Below are positions 3,851-40,307 of a stretch of 64,000 nt of DNA, piece by piece. The DNA comes from an uncultured Verrucomicrobiae bacterium. GTDB lineage: Bacteria; Verrucomicrobiota; Verrucomicrobiia; Limisphaerales; UBA11358. Both the position numbers and the translations under genes were made by a program. The stretch spans positions 204,948-268,947 of the forward strand of contig CAVWJH010000004.1 in NCBI GenBank assembly GCA_963755455.1, written 5' to 3'. Every line of letters begins with the position of its first letter. Within the stretch, counting starts at the first letter, position 1. Under the pieces are notes generated by a model. The model was not told the origin of the DNA, searched no databases, and saw nothing but the letters and a program-made list of their open reading frames with translations.

Positions 3851-4011
3851 TGGCGCAGTCTGTCATCCTCTGGATGGCGCGTCAAGCGGGCGGCAAGCTT
3901 TCCAAAATGGTTCCACAAAATCATTCCTTCTGCGCGCTGGGAAGGTGCGGTATGGTGCTTTGACCATCATTGCCACTTGACAAATCACGCCTGGTGAACA
4001 AATTTACAACC

Positions 4012-26523: not shown

Positions 26524-27991
26524 ATGCCCACACATTATCTCGCCTGCGACCTCGGCGCGGACAGCGGACGCCTCATGCTCGGCACGCTCGCCGACGGGAA
26601 AATTGTCCTTCGAGGAACTGCACCGTTTTCCCAACGGCCCGGTCGAAGACTTCCGGCGCGTTGCACTGGAACATTGACGCGCTGTTCAACGAATTGAAAA
26701 ACGGCCTCAAAAAGGCCGCCGCGAAAAATCTGACCATCGCCAGCATCAGCACCGATTCCTGGGGCGTGGATTATGTGCTTTACGACGAGCGCGGACTCAT
26801 CATGCAGCCGGTCTGGTGCTATCGCGATTCGCGCACGGCCGGCGGCGTCGAAAACGTTCGGGCAAAAGTGGACTGGCCGGCGATTTTTTCCGAAACCGGA
26901 ATCCAGTTCATGGCGCTCAACACCATTTACCAGCTCGCCGCCGAGCCGCCCGAACGTCTCGCCCGCGCAAAACAACTGCTGCTCATCGGCAACGCATTCA
27001 ATTATTTCTGTTCCGGCGTCGCGCAAAAATGAAATGTCACTCGCCAGCACCACGCAACTTTACAATCCGCAAACCAAAACGTGGTCGAAGAAACTGCTTG
27101 ACGCGCTGAAATTGCGCGAGGATATGTTCGCGCCGATTTGTGCCAGCGGCACGAAACTCGGCCCGATGAAAAAAAATCTCGCCACGGAAGTCGGCCTGCC
27201 GCAAATCGAAGTCATCGCCAGTTGTTCGCACGACACCGGCGCGGCGGTCGCCGCCGTTCCCGCGAGCGGCGAGAATTGGGCTTATTTGAGTTCCGGCACA
27301 TGGTCGCTCATGGGCGTCGAATGGCCGCAGCCCGTCATCAACGACCAGGCGCGTTCGCTCGCGCTTCACGAACGAAATCGGCTACGGCGATTCCGTTCGC
27401 CTGCTGAAAAACATCGTCGGCCTTTGGATCGTGCAGGAATGTCGCCGGCAATGGGAAAAGGAAGGCAAAAAATATGATTTTCGCGCAGCTCGAACAAATG
27501 GCCGCCGCCGCGCCGCCGTTCGTTTCGCTCATCAATCCCGACGACCCGCGCTTTTTCAGCCCCGACGATATGCCGGAAAAAATCGCCGAGTTTTGCGAAG
27601 AAACCGGCCAGCCTGTTCCTGCAAATCACGCCGCGTTCATGTCCGCTGCATTTACGAAAGCCTCGCGCTATTTTATCGCGCGACGTTGCGCCGGCTCGAA
27701 CGGCTCATCGGCAAAAAAATCGAAAAACTTCACATCGTCGGCGGCGGCAGCAAGGACGCGACGCTCAATCAATTCACCGCCAACGCGCTGAAAATTCCCG
27801 TCCTCGCCGGGCCGACTGAATGCGCCGCGCTCGGAAACATTTTCGTGCAGGCGATTGCGCTTGGCCATTTGCCGTCGCTCGCCGCCGCGCGCGAAGTCGT
27901 TCGCAATTCGTTTGAATTGAAAACTTTCACGCCGCAGGACTCCGCGCAATGGGACGCCGCCGCCGCGCGGTTTGAAAATCTGTTGAGCTAA
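26524..27991 (+). pseudogene. rhaB: Rhamnulokinase-like FGGY carbohydrate kinase with at least four frame breaks
   Basis: MPTHYLACDLGADSGR, SISTDSWGVDYVLYDERG..YRDSRT, TGIQFMALNTIYQL, SLASTTQLYNPQTKTW, SCSHDTGAAVAAVP, YLSSGTWSLMG and HIVGGGSKDATLNQFTANA are spread over three frames. Confidence 0.75.
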
Positions 27992-28027: not shown

Positions 28028-29203
28028 TTATTTCTGCGCGGCGAGATTTTGCACGTGCCGCTCAATGCGGTTGCTCGCTTCGATCAGTTGCTCGTAGCTC
28101 GTCGCAAAACAGGCACGGCAAAAACCTTTGCCGTTTTCGCCAAAGGCCGAGCCGGGAACAATCGCCACTTTTTCCGCTTGCAACAGACCAATGGCAAAAT
28201 CTTTTTCGTTCAGCCCGGACTTGCTCACGTCAGGAAACGCGTAAAACGAGCCGCGCGGCAGATGGCATTTCAATCCGATTTCATTGAACCGGCGCACGAT
28301 GAAATCGCGGCGGCGATGATACTGGTCGCGCATCTTTTTCATCGCGTCCTCGCCGCGCACGAGCGCTTCGATGGCGGCTTCCTGCGCGATGATGGACGCG
28401 CAGAGCATCGAGTATTGATGCACCTTCATCATCGCCTCGATGAGCGCCGCCGGGCCGCACGCGTAGCCGATGCGCCAGCCGGTCATGGAAAACGCCTTGG
28501 AAAATCCGTGCAGAAAAATCGTGCGCTCCTTCATGCCGGGCAAACTCGCGATGCTCGTGTGAACGCCCTCGAACGTCAGCTCGGAATAAATTTCGTCGCT
28601 CAACACGATGAGATCTTTTTCCACCGCGAATTTCGCGATGGCCTCGATCTGCGCGCGGTCGCATGTGCCGCCGGTGGGATTGCACGGCAGATTGAGCATC
28701 AGAATTTTGCAGCCGGGCTGCCACGCGGCGCGGAGCGCGTCCACGGTGAGCGCGAAGCCATCTTTCGCGAACGTCGGCACGGGCACGGCGATGCCATGCG
28801 CGAGCGTGATGCTCGGCGAATAGCTGACGTAGCACGGCTGGTGATACATCACCTTGTCGCCGGGATTGATGAGCGCGCGGCAGGCGAGGTCGAGACCTTC
28901 GCTGACGCCGACGGTGATGATGACTTCGTTTTCCGGCGCGTAGCTGACGGAATAATTTTTCTCGACGTATTTATTGATGGCGCGGCGCAATTCGATGAGG
29001 CCGAGGTTGGACGTGTAATGCGTCTTGCCCTTTTCGAGCGCGTAGATGCCGGCCTCGCGGATGTGCCAGGGCGTGTCGAAATCCGGTTCGCCGACGCCGA
29101 GCGAGATGGCGTCCTTCATCTTGGCAACGATGTCAAAAAAGTCGCGGATGCCCGACTTGGGCAGGTTGACGACGTGCTTGGCGATGAAACGTGATTGGTC
29201 CAT
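28028..29203 (-). CDS. Class I PLP aminotransferase (aspartate/alanine aminotransferase-like)
   Basis: LGVGEPDFDTP, YTSN.G, NPGDKVM, NLPCNPTGG, LSDEIYSEL, FSKAFSMTGWRIGY and the tail RACFATS. Confidence 0.85.
   Translation of the reverse strand: MDQSRFIAKHVVNLPKSGIRDFFDIVAKMKDAISLGVGEPDFDTPWHIREAGIYALEKGKTHYTSNLGLIELRRAINKYVEKNYSVSYAPENEVIITVGVSEGLDLACRALINPGDKVMYHQPCYVSYSPSITLAHGIAVPVPTFAKDGFALTVDALRAAWQPGCKILMLNLPCNPTGGTCDRAQIEAIAKFAVEKDLIVLSDEIYSELTFEGVHTSIASLPGMKERTIFLHGFSKAFSMTGWRIGYACGPAALIEAMMKVHQYSMLCASIIAQEAAIEALVRGEDAMKKMRDQYHRRRDFIVRRFNEIGLKCHLPRGSFYAFPDVSKSGLNEKDFAIGLLQAEKVAIVPGSAFGENGKGFCRACFATSYEQLIEASNRIERHVQNLAAQK
29157..29203. repeat. Direct repeat copy 1: the authentic 5' end of the aminotransferase gene
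   Basis: TTGGGCAGGTTGACGACGTGCTTGGCGATGAAACGTGATTGGTCCAT. The minus strand encodes MDQSRFIAKHVVNLPK. Confidence 0.8.
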
Positions 29204-29281
29204 TTAATTTTTCGAGGATAAAAAACTTAACCGCATTCAGCAAACGAATTGAAAAATCCTGGGTGTTACGCGCTTTGGGAT

Positions 29282-30115
29282 TTAATCCTTCTTCGCGCCC
29301 GGCAATGCCTTCAGATTGGATGAAGTCAAAACCTGCATCTGGCGGATGGCGATTTGGTTCAGCCGTTTCAGCCGTTCACCTTGCGGCAACCCCATGTGGA
29401 TGAATTCCGCATTCATCCCTTCCATGTTCGCGAGCACCAGCAACTGGTCGATGCTCGCATAATCACGGACATTGCCTTCCAACTTGGGATTGGCGTCACG
29501 CCACTGCTTCGCCGTCTGGCCGAAGAGCGCGACGTTGAGCAAATCCGCCTCGGTCGCGTAGGTGATGGCTGTCTGGGTCGGCGTGATTTCCGGCGGCATC
29601 AGGTGCGCCTTCACCGCACCGGTGTGGATGCGGTAATTCAACTTCGACAACGTGCGGTTGAGATTCCACGCGAGCGAGAGCCGACGGTTTTCGTCGTCCT
29701 TCAATCGCTGGAATTCTTTGATGAGGTAGATTTTGAATTCCGCGCTGATCCACATGCCGAACTCGAAGGCGATGTCTTTGTGCGCGAAAGTGCCGCCATA
29801 CCGGCCAGCCGTGGCTTTGAGTCCGATGGCATTGGTCTTTTCCACCCAATCCTTGACGCTGATTTTGTAGCTGTTCAGCCCGGCCTGACTTTTAATTATG
29901 GCGAATTCGCCATAATTAAAACGTGGGTTGTGAACGGATTCCCAAACACCGAGGAATTCCACGGTATTCCGATTGCGCAGCCAGTCGGAAATGAAAAAGT
30001 CGCCGTCTTTGGCCTTGAGTATGTCCGTCAGCGAAATGAAATCCTCGTCTTTGTAAGACAAGACGGCGATGGCCGTGCCTTGCACTTCAATGACGGTTTT
30101 CTTTGGTTTGCTCAT
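29282..30115 (-). CDS. KilA-N domain-containing protein
   Basis: ISLTDILKAK...ISDWLRNRNTVEFLGVWE..NPRFNYGEF...GRYGGTFAHKDIAFEFGMWISAEFKIYLIKEFQRLK matches the KilA-N family as I recall it. AT-richer than the flanks. Confidence 0.7.
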   Translation of the reverse strand: MSKPKKTVIEVQGTAIAVLSYKDEDFISLTDILKAKDGDFFISDWLRNRNTVEFLGVWESVHNPRFNYGEFAIIKSQAGLNSYKISVKDWVEKTNAIGLKATAGRYGGTFAHKDIAFEFGMWISAEFKIYLIKEFQRLKDDENRRLSLAWNLNRTLSKLNYRIHTGAVKAHLMPPEITPTQTAITYATEADLLNVALFGQTAKQWRDANPKLEGNVRDYASIDQLLVLANMEGMNAEFIHMGLPQGERLKRLNQIAIRQMQVLTSSNLKALPGAKKD

Positions 30116-30126
30116 GGCAAAATTTT

Positions 30127-30174
30127 TTGGGCAGGTTGACAGAGTGCTTGGCAATGAAAATAGGATTAGTCTGG
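30127..30174. repeat. Direct repeat copy 2: a diverged duplicate of the aminotransferase 5' end, upstream of KilA-N
   Basis: TTGGGCAGGTTGACAGAGTGCTTGGCAATGAAAATAGGATTAGTCTGG. The minus strand reads QTNPIFIAKHSVNLPK. About 36 of 48 nt match copy 1. Confidence 0.75.
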
Positions 30175-30177
30175 AAA

Positions 30178-31017
30178 TTAGATGCTCGTGAAATAATCTT
30201 TTTGAACTTTAATTTCTTCGACAACTTTCTGCTTCACCTCAACTCCAATTCCCAATTCTTTCAGCTTTTGAACCAGTTCTTCTCCGTCAATTAAATCAAT
30301 CGGCATAGCACCGTCTCTTTGAGCTTCAGCCCGAGCGTCGCGAGAAAATCTTCCGGTAGTTATCAGCAATCCCTTATCAGCCCGACCGTCCATCGCACCT
30401 CGAAAATCTCGCACTGTAGATGGAGGAACAGTTCCTTTATATCTTTTGCACTGAAAACTTACTCGAAAAGTTAATAATCCTCCGATTCGCAAAACTCCTT
30501 TTCCATCAATGCCGCCATCGCCAGATTTGCCGGTTACTTCAACTTGGATAAATCCAGATTCGCGCAATAGTAATTGGCAAAGCCGTTCAAAACTTTCAGC
30601 CGGCATTTCTTTCACAACTGAAAGTAATTCGTCCTGCCAACTATCACGTTCTGGCTCAATTTCAAATTCAGTTTGTTCGACTTTTAATTTTCGCTCTGCC
30701 TTGTCTTGATTTCTGACCGCACGTTTAACTTCCTCAATATTGACTGGATATTTTTTGCGGCCTTCAAGTGTCAGCGTCCAGACTCCACGCGCAGAATTTT
30801 CGAGAAGCCCGAAGCGCTTCATGTAATTTCGCGCCCAAGCCAAACGGTAACTCAATTTCGTTGTGCTGCCGCGATGGATTTCAGCGATGTCCTTCTCGGT
30901 GAGTTTCAAAATCGAAGCTACGGCATCTTCTTGTTCTGAAACAGAAGCAGAGCCACCCAATTGATTCACCGCCTGCAAAAGCGGATTGATCAATTCATCG
31001 TATTTTGGAACAGGCAT
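30178..31017 (-). CDS. mrr: Mrr-family type IV restriction endonuclease
   Basis: Mrr_N-like N-terminus (MPVPKYDELINPLLQAV...YRLAWARNYMKRFGLLE). Catalytic domain FERLCQLLLRESGF..VEVTGKSGDGGIDG...FQCKRY...VRDFRGAM...GLLITTGRFS. Confidence 0.85.
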   Translation of the reverse strand: MPVPKYDELINPLLQAVNQLGGSASVSEQEDAVASILKLTEKDIAEIHRGSTTKLSYRLAWARNYMKRFGLLENSARGVWTLTLEGRKKYPVNIEEVKRAVRNQDKAERKLKVEQTEFEIEPERDSWQDELLSVVKEMPAESFERLCQLLLRESGFIQVEVTGKSGDGGIDGKGVLRIGGLLTFRVSFQCKRYKGTVPPSTVRDFRGAMDGRADKGLLITTGRFSRDARAEAQRDGAMPIDLIDGEELVQKLKELGIGVEVKQKVVEEIKVQKDYFTSI

Positions 31018-31044: not shown

Positions 31045-31527
31045 TCACGGCGCGACCTTTAGCCGTTCCGTTTCCTCGACTTTGCCGCCGAGCAGGAAGC
31101 CGTGTTCCTTGTAGGAGCGCAGCATGAAATGCGTGGCCGTCGAAAGCACGCCCTCGATGGTGGACAGTTTTTCCGAGACGAACGCCGCGACCTTTTGCAG
31201 GCTCGCGCCGTTGACGAACACCAGCAGGTCGTAGCCGCCGGACATGAGATAGCAGGATTCCACCTCGTCGAACTTGCTGATGCGCTCGGCCAGGCGGTTG
31301 AAGCCGCCGCCGCGCTCGGGCGTGATCCGCACCTCAATGACGGCGCGGACGATGCCGGAATCTTCCTCCGCCAGGTTCAGCACGGGCCGGAAGCCCAGCA
31401 GCACGCCGTCGTGTTTCAGCGCGTCGAGCTGGCGGACGATTTCGGCCTCGGACAGATTGAGCACCTGCGCCATCTGCGCCGTGTTCAGGCTGCCGCCTTC
31501 GAGCAAAAGTTTTAGCACCGGATTCAT
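31045..31527 (-). CDS. Lrp/AsnC family transcriptional regulator
   Basis: HTH N-terminus (LLLEGGSLNTAQMAQVLNLSEAEIVRQL) and an AsnC-type ligand-binding domain (RAVIEVRITPE...VESCYLMSGGYDLLVFV). Confidence 0.85.
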   Translation of the reverse strand: MNPVLKLLLEGGSLNTAQMAQVLNLSEAEIVRQLDALKHDGVLLGFRPVLNLAEEDSGIVRAVIEVRITPERGGGFNRLAERISKFDEVESCYLMSGGYDLLVFVNGASLQKVAAFVSEKLSTIEGVLSTATHFMLRSYKEHGFLLGGKVEETERLKVAP

Positions 31528-31734
31528 GGGACGTGAAGTGTCGCAGAAACTGCGGTTAAATCCACACCAAACTTCCCGGCCAAACACGAAGGCAAGTGCA
31601 GGCACAATTGCGGAGTTTAAGTAATTTCAATAAACCAGCACCAGCACCGCCGCTGTTGGTTTCAATAAGGAAAGCATGAAATCAGGAAAAACTTTCCGTT
31701 CCTTGTTTCCTGCCTTCCTTATTCAATAATTTTG

Positions 31735-31793
31735 GTAGGACTCGAGGTGACGAGACTCAAATCAAGTCAGAGACTCCTCACGTCGTCCCCTAC
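31735..31793. repeat. Hairpin repeat family A (GTAGGAGCCGAGGTGACGAG..CTC / GAGACTCCTTACGTCGTCTCCTAC)
   Basis: GTAGGACTCGAGGTGACGAGACTC, a loop, then GAGACTCCTCACGTCGTCCCCTAC. The arms pair over about 24 nt with a few mismatches. Confidence 0.8.
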
Positions 31794-32068: not shown

Positions 32069-32153
32069 TTAACGCAAAGACGCAAAGATGCCAGGGCGCA
32101 AAGAACAGACGGTATTTGCCTTGCGTCTTTGCCGCTTTGCGCCTTTGCGTTAA
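32069..32153. repeat. Palindromic repeat family B (TTAACGCAAAGACGCAAAG...CTTTGCGTTAA)
   Basis: TTAACGCAAAGACGCAAAGATGCCAGGGCGCAAAG...GCCTTGCGTCTTTGCCGCTTTGCGCCTTTGCGTTAA. This copy is on the left flank of the R-M pair. Confidence 0.8.
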
Positions 32154-32320: not shown

Positions 32321-33157
32321 ATGAGCGCATATCAAGATTTTACAACGCGGTTGAAACTGCTGATTAGCAAGAATCCGCAGCTCATCACAACCACATTGAG
32401 CAATATCTTCACGATGCGGCTGATTGGGAATAAAACCCATGGTGATTTGGCGGAGATAGCGATTGCGGAGTTCATCAACCAATATATGTATGACTTCAAA
32501 TCTCTTCATGTTGGAAAAGACCTTTATCGCGCCAAACAACATGAGGAGGACATCACAATAACCAATGAAATAACAAAGGCCACATTTCCAGTGAGCTTGA
32601 AAGCTTACGGCGATGGCCCACTCCAATTATCCACGGACAAGAACTTCCAAATGTTCCCGGTGCTCAAAGCGATTGGAGCTGCGATCGAGCATAAGGATGA
32701 CATTGCGCGAATCTGGGCGCACGAAGCGTTTTCAGAATTCAGCACCATGAATGTGCTTCCACTGATTTACGACGAGAAAAAGCAAAGATGCAACATTCTC
32801 GTTTTTAATGCCGAGGCAGCCAAAGCCAATGTCGCCCGCGTCGCTTACGAGGAGGCGGGACGTGGACGGAAACACCCGGTTTTCCGTTTTTATGATGCGG
32901 AAGGTGCCTACATTTGTGAGGTGCGCTATGGCAGCGGAACTGCCAATGCGCTGCAACGCGGTCTCTGGACACATACCAAAAATGGCCTGAAGTATTTCGA
33001 CAGCGTCACCGCTGGCTGGATTGATTACTCGCACAATCATGTGCTGGTGAAATTGTTTTCACACGCGCTGCTTTCCACCAGCAAAGGCCATGAGGCGGCT
33101 TTGCTGAAGTTGAAAGAGGACATCGAAGAACAGAAGCAAAATGCCAGGCTCCGCTAA
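32321..33157 (+). CDS. Putative type II restriction endonuclease (cognate of the adjacent methyltransferase)
   Basis: 278-aa ORF ending 2 bp before the methylase ATG. Possible PD..(D/E)xK-like elements are GDLAEIAI...EEDITI...VSLK. No family recognised, so the role is inferred from context. The ORF-track start at 32045 lies in repeats. Confidence 0.5.
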   Translation: MSAYQDFTTRLKLLISKNPQLITTTLSNIFTMRLIGNKTHGDLAEIAIAEFINQYMYDFKSLHVGKDLYRAKQHEEDITITNEITKATFPVSLKAYGDGPLQLSTDKNFQMFPVLKAIGAAIEHKDDIARIWAHEAFSEFSTMNVLPLIYDEKKQRCNILVFNAEAAKANVARVAYEEAGRGRKHPVFRFYDAEGAYICEVRYGSGTANALQRGLWTHTKNGLKYFDSVTAGWIDYSHNHVLVKLFSHALLSTSKGHEAALLKLKEDIEEQKQNARLR

Positions 33158-33159
33158 TT

Positions 33160-34293
33160 ATGCAGACTTTGAATCTCTTTGATGACTTGGTTGTGGACGC
33201 CCCGGGAACGCAGGGGATTAAATATGCCGGCTCGAAACTCAAGCTGCTCCCTTACATTCTTCAACTCGTTCAAAAAGTGAAGCCGCTTACTGTGCTCGAT
33301 GGGTTTGCCGGCACGACGCGGGTTTCTCAAGCTCTGGCGCAAACTGGGCACTGCGTCATTGCCAATGACATTGCCGTCTGGTCGAAGATTTTTGGAACCT
33401 GCTATCTGCTCAACCCGCATCAAGCCGAACATTACCAATCGCTCATTGACCATCTCAACGCGCTGCCGGGAAAAGACGGCTGGTTCACGGAGAATTATGG
33501 TGGCGATCCCAATAGCGGTTGTTCCGTGGGCGAAGATAATCTCAAGAAGCCCTGGCAAAAGCACAACACACGCCGGCTGGATGCCATCCGCGAGGAAATC
33601 GAGCGGCTCGCGCTCCCGGAAGTTGAAAAGGCAGTTGCGCTGACCAGCCTGATTCTTGCCTTGGATGAAGTGGACAGCACCTTGGGACATTTCGTTTCCT
33701 ATTTGAATGATTGGTCGCCGCGTTCGCACAAGAAGCTGCATCTCAAAATTCCCCGGCTCATTCCGCAAACGGAATCGCATCGCGTGACTCACGGGAGTAT
33801 TTTTGATTTGCTGCCGCAGGTGGAAGTGGATCTCGCCTACTTCGATCCGCCGTATGGCTCGAACAACGAGAAGATGCCGCCATCACGCGTGCGTTACTCC
33901 GCTTATTATCATCTTTGGACGACCGTTTGCCTGAACGACAAACCGCCGCTGTTCGGCAAAGCAAAACGGCGAGAAGACACCTCGGACACGGTGGTTAATT
34001 CCGAGTTCGAGGAATTTCGGAAAAATCCAGCGGGGCGTTTCATCGCGTTGGAGGCAATCGAGAAGTTGCTCGCCGCAACGCGGGCACCACACATCATTCT
34101 TTCCTACAGTTCCGGTGGGCGAGCGACGGCGGAACAGTTACACGACCTTATTGCATCTGTTGGTCGTGTCGTTGAGGTTTTGGAAATTGATTACCGCAAA
34201 AACGTCATGGCTGGCATGAGTTGGACAAACGAATGGATTGCTGATGCTTCAATTCCAAACAGGGAATTCCTCTTCTTGATCGAAAAACATTGA
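33160..34293 (+). CDS. D12-class (Dam-like) N6-adenine DNA methyltransferase
   Basis: IKYAGSKLKLLPYI, the SAM-binding-like LDGFAGTTRV, and the catalytic DLAYFDPPYG. Confidence 0.8.
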   Translation: MQTLNLFDDLVVDAPGTQGIKYAGSKLKLLPYILQLVQKVKPLTVLDGFAGTTRVSQALAQTGHCVIANDIAVWSKIFGTCYLLNPHQAEHYQSLIDHLNALPGKDGWFTENYGGDPNSGCSVGEDNLKKPWQKHNTRRLDAIREEIERLALPEVEKAVALTSLILALDEVDSTLGHFVSYLNDWSPRSHKKLHLKIPRLIPQTESHRVTHGSIFDLLPQVEVDLAYFDPPYGSNNEKMPPSRVRYSAYYHLWTTVCLNDKPPLFGKAKRREDTSDTVVNSEFEEFRKNPAGRFIALEAIEKLLAATRAPHIILSYSSGGRATAEQLHDLIASVGRVVEVLEIDYRKNVMAGMSWTNEWIADASIPNREFLFLIEKH

Positions 34294-34413
34294 ACGGCAC
34301 GCCTTCGCTCCGCGATTACAGACTCCAATCACTCCAATCGTCCATCACTAAACGATTTTGGCACGGCGTTCGTCCCCAGCGCCGTCGGCGCGGCATATTC
34401 GGCGGGGAAATTT

Positions 34414-34502
34414 TCAACGCAAAGACGCAAAGGCGCGAAGTCGCAAGGAATTTTTGCTTTGCGCTCATTGCGTCTTGGCGTCTTTGCGTTAATTCTTTCA
34501 CT
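34414..34502. repeat. Palindromic repeat family B, right flank of the R-M pair
   Basis: TCAACGCAAAGACGCAAAGGCGCGAAGTCGCAAGG...GCTTTGCGCTCATTGCGTCTTGGCGTCTTTGCGTTAA. Confidence 0.8.
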
Positions 34503-34618
34503 GATGATTCCGCTCCTACGGAGCTTGATTCATTTACGCTGCCGTTTCTACAAATATGCCAGTCCTACGGACTTCGCCGCCTTCGCGTCCTTCGCGCGAC
34601 CCGTTGCCCTGGCGTTTT

Positions 34619-34711
34619 GTAGGAGTCGAGGTGACGAGACTCATTTCAATCTTGGACCGGCGAATGCGGATTGCGGATTTTCAATCAGAGACTCCTCACG
34701 TCGTCCCCTGC
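34619..34711. repeat. Hairpin repeat family A, long-loop copy
   Basis: GTAGGAGTCGAGGTGACGAGACTC ... GAGACTCCTCACGTCGTCCCCTGC. The loop itself carries another short motif (TGCGGATTGCGGATTTTCAATC). Confidence 0.8.
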
Positions 34712-37843: not shown

Positions 37844-37907
37844 GAGCCGAGGTGACGAGGCTCTGACTAAATTATTTTGAAGTGAGACTCCTTACGTCGT
37901 CTCCCAC
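37840..37907. repeat. Hairpin repeat family A between convergent folB and comEC
   Basis: GTAGGAGCCGAGGTGACGAGGCTC ... GAGACTCCTTACGTCGTCTCCCAC. It contains the folB stop (TAG, 37841-37843) and the last 11 codons plus the stop of comEC. Confidence 0.85.
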
Positions 37908-40307
37908 AAACTTCCGTCCGTCCATCGCCCGCAATTTCCAGCCGTTCGCGTCAGTGACAATTGTCACCGCGCCGGAATCGCGCGTGTAAATGGTTGGAAT
38001 TTCTTTTTGTGCCAACCGCTCCTTTAATTCGCGGCTTGCGCGCCGGTCTGCTGGAAATTCTGAATCGGCAATGACAATTATTTTCGGCCGGATCGCATCA
38101 ATCAACACATTTGCAAGCGGCTCGCCTTCGTTCGGCAAACCTGCGACGACAATGTCCGCGTGCAAATCATTTGTCGTCGCCAGCAACCCGCTTTGTCCGG
38201 CGCGGCTCAAGTCGGAAAGCAGCAGAATCTTTGCGCCGGAAAAATTTCCCAGCAGCACGAGCGCGCCATCGTCGGCGCGTGAAAAATTATTCGTCGCCAC
38301 CGGCCACAAAATTTGCCAGCAGCCGGATTTGTCGCCGCAATCGAAAATTTTGCGGCGCGACGATTTTTCAAATGTGGTAACAATTCCATTGTAAGCACCG
38401 GAGCGAAAATGAACCGGGCTGGTCCAAAGCTCGCCGACACCAAAAAGCCGGTCGAGCAAATCCGCGCCGCCGTAATTTTTCAAATCGCCTTCGGTTAAAA
38501 CGAGTCGCGGAATTGTGTTCACGCCCTGTGCCCGGAGAAAATTCTTGAGCGTGAAATTGACGGCGTCCTCGTTGCCGCAATCAATAAGCCAGTCGTTTTT
38601 GCGTCCGGCGGCGTCCACGAAAACCGAATGACCGCCGTTCAGCGGCAAAACGGTCAGTTTGGTTTCGTCGCGCGAACTTTCCCATTGCCACAAATAAGGC
38701 GCGGCGATAAAAATCAAAGCCGCCGCGCCAAATGCTTTTCTTCGCGCCGTTTTTAACCAGCCGCTCAAGGCAACAATCAGAATCGCGTAATAAATTCCAA
38801 TCGAAATCCACGACGGCGCGGGAACGTAAAAATACGAGCCGGGCATTTGGGTGAACCATTCGCTCACGTCCGTCATTGCCGACATGAAAAACCACGCGGC
38901 GTTGTTGAACAGTTCCGTTGCGAACGGAAACCACGCGCCGCAGATCAGCGCGCCGAGATTGCTCATCAGCGCCAGCGTGCCGAGCGGGACGGCGATGAGG
39001 TTGGCGAACGGTGAAACCGGGCTGAACAAATGGAAATACAGCGCGCTCAACGGAATCGAGCCGAGCCACGCGGCAAGCGAGAGCGAAAAATAACGCGCGA
39101 GAATCCTCGATGTGGAAATGAGAATGCGACGCCATTTCGGAATCAAATCGTCCGGAACCAGCGGATCGTGGCGCAACAGCCCGTCGGAAATTTTATTCAT
39201 TCGCGGCAGCAGCAGGCCGATGACGAGCATGACGGAAAATGACAGTTGGAAGCTGGCTTCAAAAAGCTGGCGCGGTTCCCAAAGCAAAATCACGAAGGCG
39301 GCGGCGGCGAGGGAATTGAGCAGATCGCCCGGACGCTTCAACGCCCAGCCGCCGAGCACGATGGTCATCATCACCGACGCGCGGATGGCGGACGATTCCC
39401 AGCCGGTCGCGGCGGTGTAAAACCAGATGAGCGGAATGGCGATGATGCCGCACCACGCGCGCGAGACTTGCAGCACGCGCAGCAGCGCGACGAGCATTCC
39501 CGCGATGAGCGCGATGCGCAGGCCGTCAATCGCAAACAGGTGCATCGTGCCGGCGCGCAGAAACGGATCGCCGATGTCGCCGGTGAACGCGGTGCGCCAG
39601 CCGAGCGTCATCGCCCAAAGCAGTTGCAATGGCTGGTCTTCGACGGGCAGACCCAATGCGAGCGTGCGTTTTGCCCAGCTTAAAAAGCGGTCGGTGAGCG
39701 GCGGCTGTTGCAAAACCGGCGCGTGCAGCCGCCAGTCGTTCGTGGACGAAGTTTTAAGTTCGTAATAAATGCCGCGCGTTTGGAGATAGCTGCGGTCGTC
39801 GAAAAGCCCTTCGGCCAGAGGCGTTGGCGGTTTTGAAATGACTCCTGAAATTTCAACGGACTGCCCGGCGAAAAAATCCGGCGGAAGTTCGTCCGGCGTT
39901 GCCACGATGATTTTGCCGGGCGCGGGACGCCATTCATCACCGAGCCGGATTTCTGAAACACGAACCTGCGTGAGTGAGTGTTCGGACTGTTCGCCGCCGC
40001 GTTCGGAAATTTTCAGTTGCGGCGTCTGGACCAAGGTTCCACGCACGGCGGCGATTTGAGGTTCGTTGCCGGTCAACTTCCGCAGGTCATCCGGCGAAAT
40101 GTCCGCCGTGTGGACAACCAGATTGATCCAGCCGGCGAGCGCGAGAAGCAGGCAAATCAAAACCGGCCGGAATTTTTCGAGGGCGAGGGCGAGGATGAGG
40201 ACGAAAAAAGAAACGGAAAACAATACAGCAAGCGGCGGCTGGAAAATTTCCGCGAGCAGCAGGCCGGTCGCGTAAAAGGAAACGACGGCGGCAAGCGGGC
40301 GTTTCAT
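37872..40307 (-). CDS. comEC: DNA internalization competence protein ComEC/Rec2 with a C-terminal metallo-beta-lactamase domain
   Basis: 811 aa. It has an N-terminal DUF4131-like region, a polytopic competence domain, and a C-terminal LPLNGGHSVFVD...DCG lactamase-fold region. The last 11 codons are repeat-derived. Confidence 0.9.
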   Translation of the reverse strand: MKRPLAAVVSFYATGLLLAEIFQPPLAVLFSVSFFVLILALALEKFRPVLICLLLALAGWINLVVHTADISPDDLRKLTGNEPQIAAVRGTLVQTPQLKISERGGEQSEHSLTQVRVSEIRLGDEWRPAPGKIIVATPDELPPDFFAGQSVEISGVISKPPTPLAEGLFDDRSYLQTRGIYYELKTSSTNDWRLHAPVLQQPPLTDRFLSWAKRTLALGLPVEDQPLQLLWAMTLGWRTAFTGDIGDPFLRAGTMHLFAIDGLRIALIAGMLVALLRVLQVSRAWCGIIAIPLIWFYTAATGWESSAIRASVMMTIVLGGWALKRPGDLLNSLAAAAFVILLWEPRQLFEASFQLSFSVMLVIGLLLPRMNKISDGLLRHDPLVPDDLIPKWRRILISTSRILARYFSLSLAAWLGSIPLSALYFHLFSPVSPFANLIAVPLGTLALMSNLGALICGAWFPFATELFNNAAWFFMSAMTDVSEWFTQMPGSYFYVPAPSWISIGIYYAILIVALSGWLKTARRKAFGAAALIFIAAPYLWQWESSRDETKLTVLPLNGGHSVFVDAAGRKNDWLIDCGNEDAVNFTLKNFLRAQGVNTIPRLVLTEGDLKNYGGADLLDRLFGVGELWTSPVHFRSGAYNGIVTTFEKSSRRKIFDCGDKSGCWQILWPVATNNFSRADDGALVLLGNFSGAKILLLSDLSRAGQSGLLATTNDLHADIVVAGLPNEGEPLANVLIDAIRPKIIVIADSEFPADRRASRELKERLAQKEIPTIYTRDSGAVTIVTDANGWKLRAMDGRKFVGDDVRSLTSK

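Follow-up and report, generated by a model that had tools for sequence, protein, structure and literature searches.

We report on a small gene cassette that resides between two conserved core genes in a 64,000-nucleotide stretch of DNA from an uncultured Verrucomicrobiae bacterium (hereafter referred to as the window; all positions are those of the whole stretch, unless another locus is named). The core genes encode an Lrp/AsnC-family regulator and a class I/II aminotransferase, and the interval between them is, in the clade to which the window belongs (metagenome-assembled genomes [MAGs] of the subdivision 3/Limisphaerales type), a hypervariable hotspot for small defence and toxin-antitoxin (TA) cassettes. 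In the window, this interval holds an Mrr-type (type IV) restriction endonuclease gene and a gene for a KilA-N domain protein, and between the two lies a decayed remnant of the first 16 codons of the aminotransferase gene. This remnant is probably a scar, by now in decay, that an "insertion with long target duplication" has left at the hotspot. The repeat, the hotspot, the recurring duplication of gene ends, junctions common to different contexts and the movement of cassettes between lineages are all evident from the comparisons described below.

The genes of the locus are all encoded on the minus strand. The gene for the Lrp-type regulator (31045-31527; Pfam AsnC_trans_reg), the conserved left flank of the hotspot, is followed by the Mrr gene (30178-31017; Pfam Mrr_cat and Mrr_N, PADLOC mREase_IV), a second and independent cassette, by the remnant (30126-30172), by the KilA-N gene (29282-30115; 277 amino acids, Pfam KilA-N, E = 4e-21), by a 78-nt leader (29204-29281) with a conserved sigma-70-like promoter-like element, and by the aminotransferase gene (28028-29203; Pfam Aminotran_1_2, E = 3e-70), the conserved right flank. 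Comparison with the remnant identifies codons 1-16 of the latter (29156-29203) as the intact copy of the repeat. The initial annotation of this DNA had described a diverged copy of the aminotransferase 5' end directly upstream of the KilA-N start, with the two copies as direct repeats around an AT-richer insert, and this description holds. A repeat search paired 29157-29189 with 30127-30159 (33 nt, 29/33 or 88% identical, spacing 970), and the in-frame reading of the minus strand is FIAKHVVNLPK in the gene and FIAKHSVNLPK in the copy; in a gapped alignment the homology extends from codon 2 to codon 16 over 47 nt with about 75% identity. The remnant has lost its ATG through a 2-nt deletion and carries additional 1-nt indels. 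It starts 5 nt past the Mrr stop codon (30178), and the KilA-N ATG (30115) follows 10 nt beyond its end. The 923-nt insert encodes only KilA-N and has a GC content of 51.8% (KilA-N gene itself, 53.5%), as compared with 58.5% for the aminotransferase gene, 62.7% for the Lrp gene and 43.9% for the Mrr gene. When the first 60 nt of the aminotransferase gene were compared with the 2.4 kb upstream, the best ungapped local score was 21, while 300 composition-preserving block shuffles gave a mean of 8.3, a standard deviation of 1.0 and a maximum of 13. The similarity, which the initial annotation had wanted to see tested against chance, hence lies 13 standard deviations above the shuffled sequences. 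We also considered the remnant as a homologue of the aminotransferase promoter motif and rejected this assignment, as the match to the coding 5' end is much better.

A scan with the aminotransferase protein, using one genome per species, retrieved 80 loci, essentially all of them from Verrucomicrobia MAGs, with aminotransferases that are 73-96% identical and with an Lrp gene adjacent in nearly all instances. In 68 loci (67 relatives and the window) the two genes have the same orientation; metagenome contigs were added to this collection, and the compared loci and contigs are designated here by L-numbers. The gap between the Lrp and aminotransferase genes is at most 250 nt long in 44 of the 68 loci (9-83 nt in 38 of them), and it measures 0.45-4.9 kb and contains cassettes in the remaining 24. 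Genomes whose aminotransferase gene is 91-94% identical to that of the window at the nucleotide level mostly have different contents at this position, and a few are empty. The cargo consists of small TA or defence genes, namely those for a HigB toxin with its partner, a ParE-like toxin with its partner, a PIN protein, HepT paired with a nucleotidyltransferase (MNT), nucleases of the HNH_2 (two kinds) and HSDR_N types, a Dcm methylase accompanied by HATPase and Vsr, as well as Mrr and KilA-N. Given this diversity of small cassettes in the relatives, the Mrr and KilA-N genes of the window are to be regarded as two hotspot cassettes. The single insertion event that had been proposed for KilA-N is consequently one instance of a locus-wide phenomenon, with Mrr itself representing another mobile cassette.

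Many of these cassettes are bracketed by direct repeats. Searches of the inserts at the DNA and protein level for partial copies of the two flanking genes showed that the repeated sequence comprises either 16-51 codons from the aminotransferase 5' end or about 123 nt from the Lrp 3' end. The aminotransferase remnants end at codons 16, 20, 21, 34, about 36, 38, 41 and about 42; codon 21 was found in L002 and L023, codon 34 in L007 and L050, codon ~36 in L014, codon 38 in L071, codon 41 in a second copy in L002, and codon ~42 in L027. At the other flank, a HigBA pair is enclosed by directly repeated copies of the Lrp 3' end that measure 122-126 nt and terminate exactly at the stop codon; this junction is identical in L001, L012 and L014, and the downstream neighbours differ in all three. 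Likewise, the junction at codon 34 next to a pair of open reading frames (ORF78 and ORF86) is found in both L007 and L050. On the aminotransferase side, homology between the copies begins at the ATG in most cases, since the sequence further upstream is cassette-specific; in L071 it includes the promoter-like element. Two remnants are more similar to the aminotransferase gene of another lineage than to the resident copy (L050, 88% versus 78%; L023, 95% versus 91%). A larger second partial aminotransferase copy (about residues 32-135) is present in L047 (2106-3014), approximately 4.7 kb upstream of the intact gene, and duplications at the hotspot can thus far exceed 16-51 codons.

The KilA-N gene itself occupies the same place in six locus groups, namely the window, L002, L023, L092-L099, L100-L104 and L215-L217, and is absent from L081-L091; further states of the locus were recovered by looking up the records that contain exactly the proteins found as close homologues of Mrr and KilA-N. 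In all six groups, a remnant of the aminotransferase 5' end is positioned immediately upstream of KilA-N, and the remnants form a series in their identity to the resident gene from 97-100% down to the approximately 75% of the window; the younger versions elsewhere are 91-100% identical to it. The state without KilA-N is represented by L081-L090 and L210, where the order is Lrp, Mrr, 66 nt and aminotransferase with a single 5' end; in L091, the Mrr gene is followed by ORF78, ORF86 and the aminotransferase gene. Loci L100-L104 have the same layout as the window (Lrp, Mrr, remnant, KilA-N, aminotransferase). In L092-L099, a remnant of aminotransferase codons 1-20 that is identical to the resident gene at 60 of 60 positions precedes one copy of a palindrome described below, KilA-N and the intact gene. 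In L215-L217, Lrp and Mrr are followed by 15 nt, aminotransferase codons 1-21 with an intact ATG, two palindromes, KilA-N, the promoter-like element and the aminotransferase gene; the direct repeats of L215 measure 65 nt, are 97% identical and lie 1083 nt apart. Homologous KilA-N modules thereby possess repeats of 60-65 nt at 97-100% identity. At this locus the remnant always accompanies KilA-N, and does so behind four different upstream contexts. The initial annotation is therefore plausible where it bases the origin on homology and lets remnant and cassette travel together; it does not stand as one single event.

The initial annotation further took the divergence of the window's remnant as a sign of its import from a relative, and here the evidence points elsewhere. 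Among 76 aminotransferase 5' ends surveyed, those nearest to the remnant core belong to the window's own clade (28/33), and the changes present in the remnant (ATT, TCT, CCTAT) occur in none of the 76. All of its substitutions are directed towards A/T. Together with the loss of the ATG and the frameshifting indels, this suggests a dead copy that has decayed where it lies, and such decay explains the divergence better than a foreign origin does. The same decayed remnant is present in the independent lineage L100-L104, where 58 of 61 nt are shared over the spacer between Mrr and KilA-N (window, 30116-30177; L100, 3940-4000), so that only 3 sites differ; relative to the GACCAATC of the gene, there is one mismatch in the copy of L100 (GATCAATC) and one, at another position, in that of the window (GACTAATC). 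The decayed copy was already present in the common source of both lineages. One may still ask whether the remnant arrived already diverged from the aminotransferase gene of a distant relative, along with KilA-N or Mrr, in one event of homology-facilitated illegitimate recombination. The remnants of L050 and L023 document that foreign aminotransferase 5' ends have been imported at this locus, the remnant codons are AT-rich like the neighbouring Mrr gene with its 44% GC, and only 5 nt separate it from Mrr. Yet indels and a destroyed ATG are unlike any functional donor gene, the survey provides no source for its changes and instead points to the window's clade, mutational decay predicts the uniform trend towards A/T, and L100-L104 hold the same decayed copy. 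We therefore regard such an import as unlikely.

Site-specific integration would be a further way to arrive at two copies of a gene end. An integrase, either lost or acting in trans, would recognise an attachment (att) site within the first aminotransferase codons, and the repeats would correspond to attL and attR. Integrative elements do restore the end of their target gene and leave a displaced copy behind, and the junction CGCGA/TTAAT (...GGCATCCGCGA/TT(T)AAT...) is exactly the same in three lineages, L023, L002 and L215, with the conserved palindrome directly at it. However, Pfam scans that covered the cassettes, the neighbouring genes and the larger ORFs over about 9 kb revealed no integrase, transposase or other recombinase domain. 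The breakpoints in the aminotransferase gene are spread between codon 16 and about codon 42, and for other cassettes it is the Lrp 3' end that serves instead. Moreover, the cargo is heterogeneous and has no common end sequence, and a single event spread by homologous recombination explains the shared junctions equally well. Upstream of this junction, a native-looking 108-nt spacer is found in L023, a membrane-protein cassette in L002, and Mrr in L215. A check for microhomology at the joint compared CGCGACTTTT in the aminotransferase gene with CACGTTTTAAT in the interior of KilA-N; for the junction of the window, no clear microhomology could be defined. With no recombinase domain in the cassettes or in the approximately 9 kb scanned, and with breakpoints that vary, neither a fixed att site nor a target duplication of the transposase type comes into question. 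The latter had already been discounted in the initial annotation, and in agreement with this the repeat is 47 nt long here and variable elsewhere, breakpoints differ between lineages, and the insert has neither terminal inverted repeats around it nor a transposase. We thus hold site-specific integration to be very improbable. A chance match or an assembly artefact, which the shortness of the element and the nearby FGGY kinase gene that is split over several frames (by sequence errors or as a pseudogene) might bring to mind, can practically be dismissed, since the score lies far above all shuffles, the same element recurs at the same position in independent metagenome contigs, and longer, fresher versions exist in four further locus groups.

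Movement between lineages is apparent for the Mrr cassette as well. The Mrr genes of the window and L081 are 95% identical at the nucleotide level, as compared with 83% for the flanking Lrp gene and 88% for the aminotransferase gene. A cassette that is more similar than its flanks implies that cassettes move between lineages. Mrr homologues that are 88-89% identical are also found at an unrelated site (L211, 2152-2991; L213, 2501-3340), where they sit between a gene of the xanthine-dehydrogenase type and btpA, with spacers of 9 nt and 19 nt; the Mrr cassette accordingly also occupies sites other than the hotspot.

The following scenario, a case of insertion with long target duplication, is supported by these data. 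The KilA-N module would have entered within the first 16-21 codons of the aminotransferase gene and would have brought along, or regenerated, a promoter and an intact aminotransferase 5' end, while the displaced 5' end would have stayed upstream as a dead fragment that later decayed. The first duplication could have arisen either through a RecA-type homologous crossover in a conserved flank gene combined with one illegitimate joint, or through a looped-out circle and its Campbell-type integration. From then on, the remnant would provide the left homology arm, a short one, and the intact aminotransferase gene the right one, so that a module consisting of aminotransferase codons 1-n, cassette, promoter and aminotransferase could enter any relative that bears this gene by double crossover, whatever is located upstream; the remnant would pair with the 5' end of the recipient's gene, and the intact copy farther downstream. 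Such a spread would account for the occurrence of one and the same junction with differing neighbours, upstream in the case of KilA-N and downstream in that of HigBA, and it would explain why the remnants of L050 and L023 are closer to the aminotransferase gene of another lineage. In the window, the sequence TTTCC alone separates the Mrr stop codon from the remnant; because a sequence of the ATTTCC type is commonly native just before the aminotransferase start, the ancestor probably had the order Lrp, Mrr, aminotransferase. We infer from this that Mrr came first and KilA-N second. Mosaic identity profiles did not reveal which of the two aminotransferase 5' copies is the native one. Unlike the other lineages, the window and L100 possess no palindromes between the remnant and KilA-N, which would reflect either a later deletion or a separate event.

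Several observations weigh against this scenario. The comparison of the locus across relatives that the initial annotation had called for, favourable in all six KilA-N locus groups at the hotspot, also uncovered KilA-N with 92% amino acid identity at an unrelated locus (L105-L112) that has neither an aminotransferase remnant nor a flanking repeat. Furthermore, the remnant is not simply drifting, as the 61-nt spacer that contains it is far less diverged between the window and L100 than are the fourfold-degenerate sites in four genes, 17-32% of which differ (binomial P of about 8e-4 for the spacer at 20%); it may have been co-opted as the 5' region of KilA-N, or the block may have been exchanged recently. 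The 33-nt core of the window's repeat is near the 30-bp lower limit of the long-target-duplication class. The window's breakpoint is at codon 16 and has no upstream palindromes, whereas KilA-N breakpoints elsewhere are at codons 20 and 21; it represents either an independent event or the outcome of a later deletion. As to the recombination pathway, the same product is expected whether it arises through a circular intermediate, a one-sided illegitimate joint or an unequal sister exchange, so that the route suggested above is one of several. Finally, the comparison sequences are mostly MAG and metagenome contigs, in which repeats can misassemble; the architecture of the window was found again in five independent contigs from different samples (L100-L104).

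The initial annotation had suggested that KilA-N sits where the aminotransferase promoter used to be. In contrast to this assumption, a promoter-like element is retained between the two genes, with TTGCTG as the -35 region (29238-29243) and TATCCT as the -10 region (29215-29220) on the minus strand and a 17-nt spacer. The pattern TTGCNN-17-TATNCT recurs at a fixed distance from the aminotransferase start in about two dozen distinct sequences (approximately 25 loci), behind many different cassettes and with a variable spacer sequence. It is found in cassette-carrying loci, though not in all of them, and loci with a short gap of 9-83 nt between Lrp and aminotransferase do not have it; in these, the aminotransferase gene may be co-transcribed with Lrp. 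A scan with the sigma-70 consensus called no minus-strand promoter in this region, with TTGCTG/TATCCT scoring below the threshold; it is the conservation of the element that suggests a promoter function.

The KilA-N protein of the window matches the PADLOC profile PDC-S22, a candidate family for single-gene phage defence, over its full length (E = 6e-129; residues 5-267 align with positions 3-268 of the 281 in the profile), and it also matches phrog_2657 (E = 2e-55). A role in defence is thus suggested for it by membership in a candidate family. A sequence search of the PDB gave nothing below E = 0.1, and an AlphaFold model built on a shallow 16-sequence alignment had a pLDDT of 44 and was not used.

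Within the coding sequence of this gene lies a perfect palindrome of 32 nt (29890-29921; TTTTAATTATGGCGAA followed by TTCGCCATAATTAAAA) that encodes FNYGEFAIIK and conforms to a general pattern of 30-32 nt, TTTAAT-N5-CGAATTCG-N5-ATTAAA. Diverged alleles keep the palindrome at the same place with compensating changes in the stems (L023, 6273-6304; L002, 5210-5241), and the encoded residues vary (YG..AI, PI..DG, SP..EG, CT..GT) while the palindrome stays. One to three extra palindromes are present upstream of KilA-N in L092 (about 3922-3953), L023 (5981-6060), L002 (4866-5010) and L215 (3418-3500), with the first of them directly at the junction to the aminotransferase remnant; some of these copies are positioned about 46-50 nt before the KilA-N start. 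When viral contigs were scanned with the general pattern, 97 matches were obtained. Complementarity between the two N5 blocks extends to 5/5 positions in 35 of them, to 4/5 in 42 and to 3/5 in 20, against a chance expectation of 1.25; at least 10 different fully complementary stems occur among them. Sixty-nine of the 97 lie inside KilA-N homologues (46-68% amino acid identity), centred near codon 70, and the other 28 are found outside open reading frames, in stretches that yielded no KilA-N match. On the sense strand, most of the mismatches are of the C.A and not of the G.U type, which argues for a site that acts at the DNA level and against a hairpin in the sense RNA. We found no report of this palindrome in a literature search. 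It could possibly be an operator for the DNA-binding domain of KilA-N, a recombination-prone site, or something else, and where it coincides with the shared junction, it may act in cis to promote these joints.

The published cases of insertion with long target duplication (Nobusato et al., 2000; Furuta, Abe and Kobayashi, 2010, PMC2853133) concern restriction systems of types I-IV and come for the most part from naturally competent bacteria. Such insertions are recognised by direct repeats of more than 30 bp, by the presence of only one copy of the target in an insert-free relative, by an insert below 20 kb and by the absence of mobility genes (PMC2853133). In the window, the repeat measures 47 nt in the gapped alignment with an ungapped core of 33 nt at 88% identity, the target is single-copy in L081-L090 and L210, which have one aminotransferase 5' end and no KilA-N, and 44 loci carry no insert; the insert is 923 nt long and encodes KilA-N only, and no mobility gene was detected in the approximately 9 kb scanned. 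The likeness to the published cases thus resides in a small defence unit, long direct repeats of variable length and the lack of a transposase or integrase. The difference lies in the cargo, since KilA-N and not a restriction-modification (R-M) system is enclosed by the repeats, and Mrr, a type IV enzyme, is located outside of them; elsewhere at the hotspot, the cargo consists of TA pairs and solitary nucleases. In addition, what is duplicated is in every case a coding end of either the Lrp or the aminotransferase gene, and several events stack into arrays. The Verrucomicrobiota represent a new phylum for insertion with long target duplication, and one in which the cargo is not of the R-M type.

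The locus also resembles the minimal mobile elements of Neisseria and other core-gene defence hotspots, whose cassettes are swapped through homologous recombination in the flanks (PMC3787668, PMC1797815). Two conserved flanking genes with different whole-gene cassettes in each strain are present here as well. Minimal mobile elements are described as clean replacements, however, whereas many cassettes at the Lrp-aminotransferase locus carry a partial end of a flanking gene, so that one conserved gene would suffice as a target. Integron arrays share with our locus the ordered, promoter-poor cassettes of one or two genes, often with TA or defence functions, that are placed beside a fixed chromosomal point. 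In contrast to integrons, no IntI was detected in the scanned genes and larger ORFs within about 9 kb and no attI was found, and the cassette boundaries hold copies of flank-gene ends; inspection by eye, with no search aimed at attC, disclosed neither an attC-like element at the cassette ends nor a shared end sequence. Site-specific elements combine a recombinase with a constant crossover point, and neither was found, as the breakpoints fall at variable aminotransferase codons and also at the Lrp 3' end. Homology-facilitated illegitimate recombination, reportedly described by de Vries and Wackernagel in 2002, is said to combine one homologous anchor with one illegitimate joint and to operate without a dedicated recombinase. 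In its classical form it usually deletes recipient DNA rather than duplicating it. It could have created the first duplication at our locus, and the microhomology at the junctions is suggestive at best.

In the wider surroundings of the locus, a gene for a ComEC-type competence channel is located 7 kb away (37872-40307, minus strand; Pfam Competence, E = 1e-51). It is compatible with the DNA uptake that the recombination model needs and is no evidence of natural transformation. Rfam (E up to 1) and tRNA searches gave no match in or near the locus. Next to the aminotransferase gene, a gene for an FGGY-family sugar kinase (rhamnulokinase-like; 26524-27991, plus strand) is broken across at least three reading frames and is either a pseudogene or the product of indel errors in a long-read assembly; should the latter apply, single-base indels elsewhere in the window are to be treated with care. 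Beyond the Lrp gene lies a type II R-M pair (32321-34293; PADLOC REase_II, E = 4e-139, and a D12-class MTase_II, E = 1e-157), which is flanked by a hairpin element of about 85 nt (TTAACGCAAAG...) at 32069-32153 and 34407-34499 and by a second repeat at 31731-31791 and 34615-34709, with more copies at 37884 and 41446. Its flanking direct repeats of 25-35 nt had suggested a further case of long target duplication; this was rejected, because these repeats belong to hairpin elements that are dispersed and occur four times in the window.

Collectively, the Lrp-aminotransferase locus provides a multi-genome example, from an uncultured phylum, of small defence and TA genes that spread without a dedicated mobility enzyme. 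Its scars testify to repeated insertion inside the ends of two core genes and to the restoration of these ends, and the remnants, which range from 100% identical to heavily decayed, constitute a natural time series of such insertions. Tentatively, the locus could be viewed as a recombinase-free analogue of an integron, in which cassettes carry a partial core-gene end as a portable homology arm; we consider this rather less than an even prospect. RecA and DNA uptake would then suffice for insertion at one conserved gene end, for the stacking of cassettes and for their loop-out via the repeats. If this holds true, a single conserved gene would make an exchange point for accessory genes, and this would help to explain why defence hotspots are stable in their position but variable in their content.

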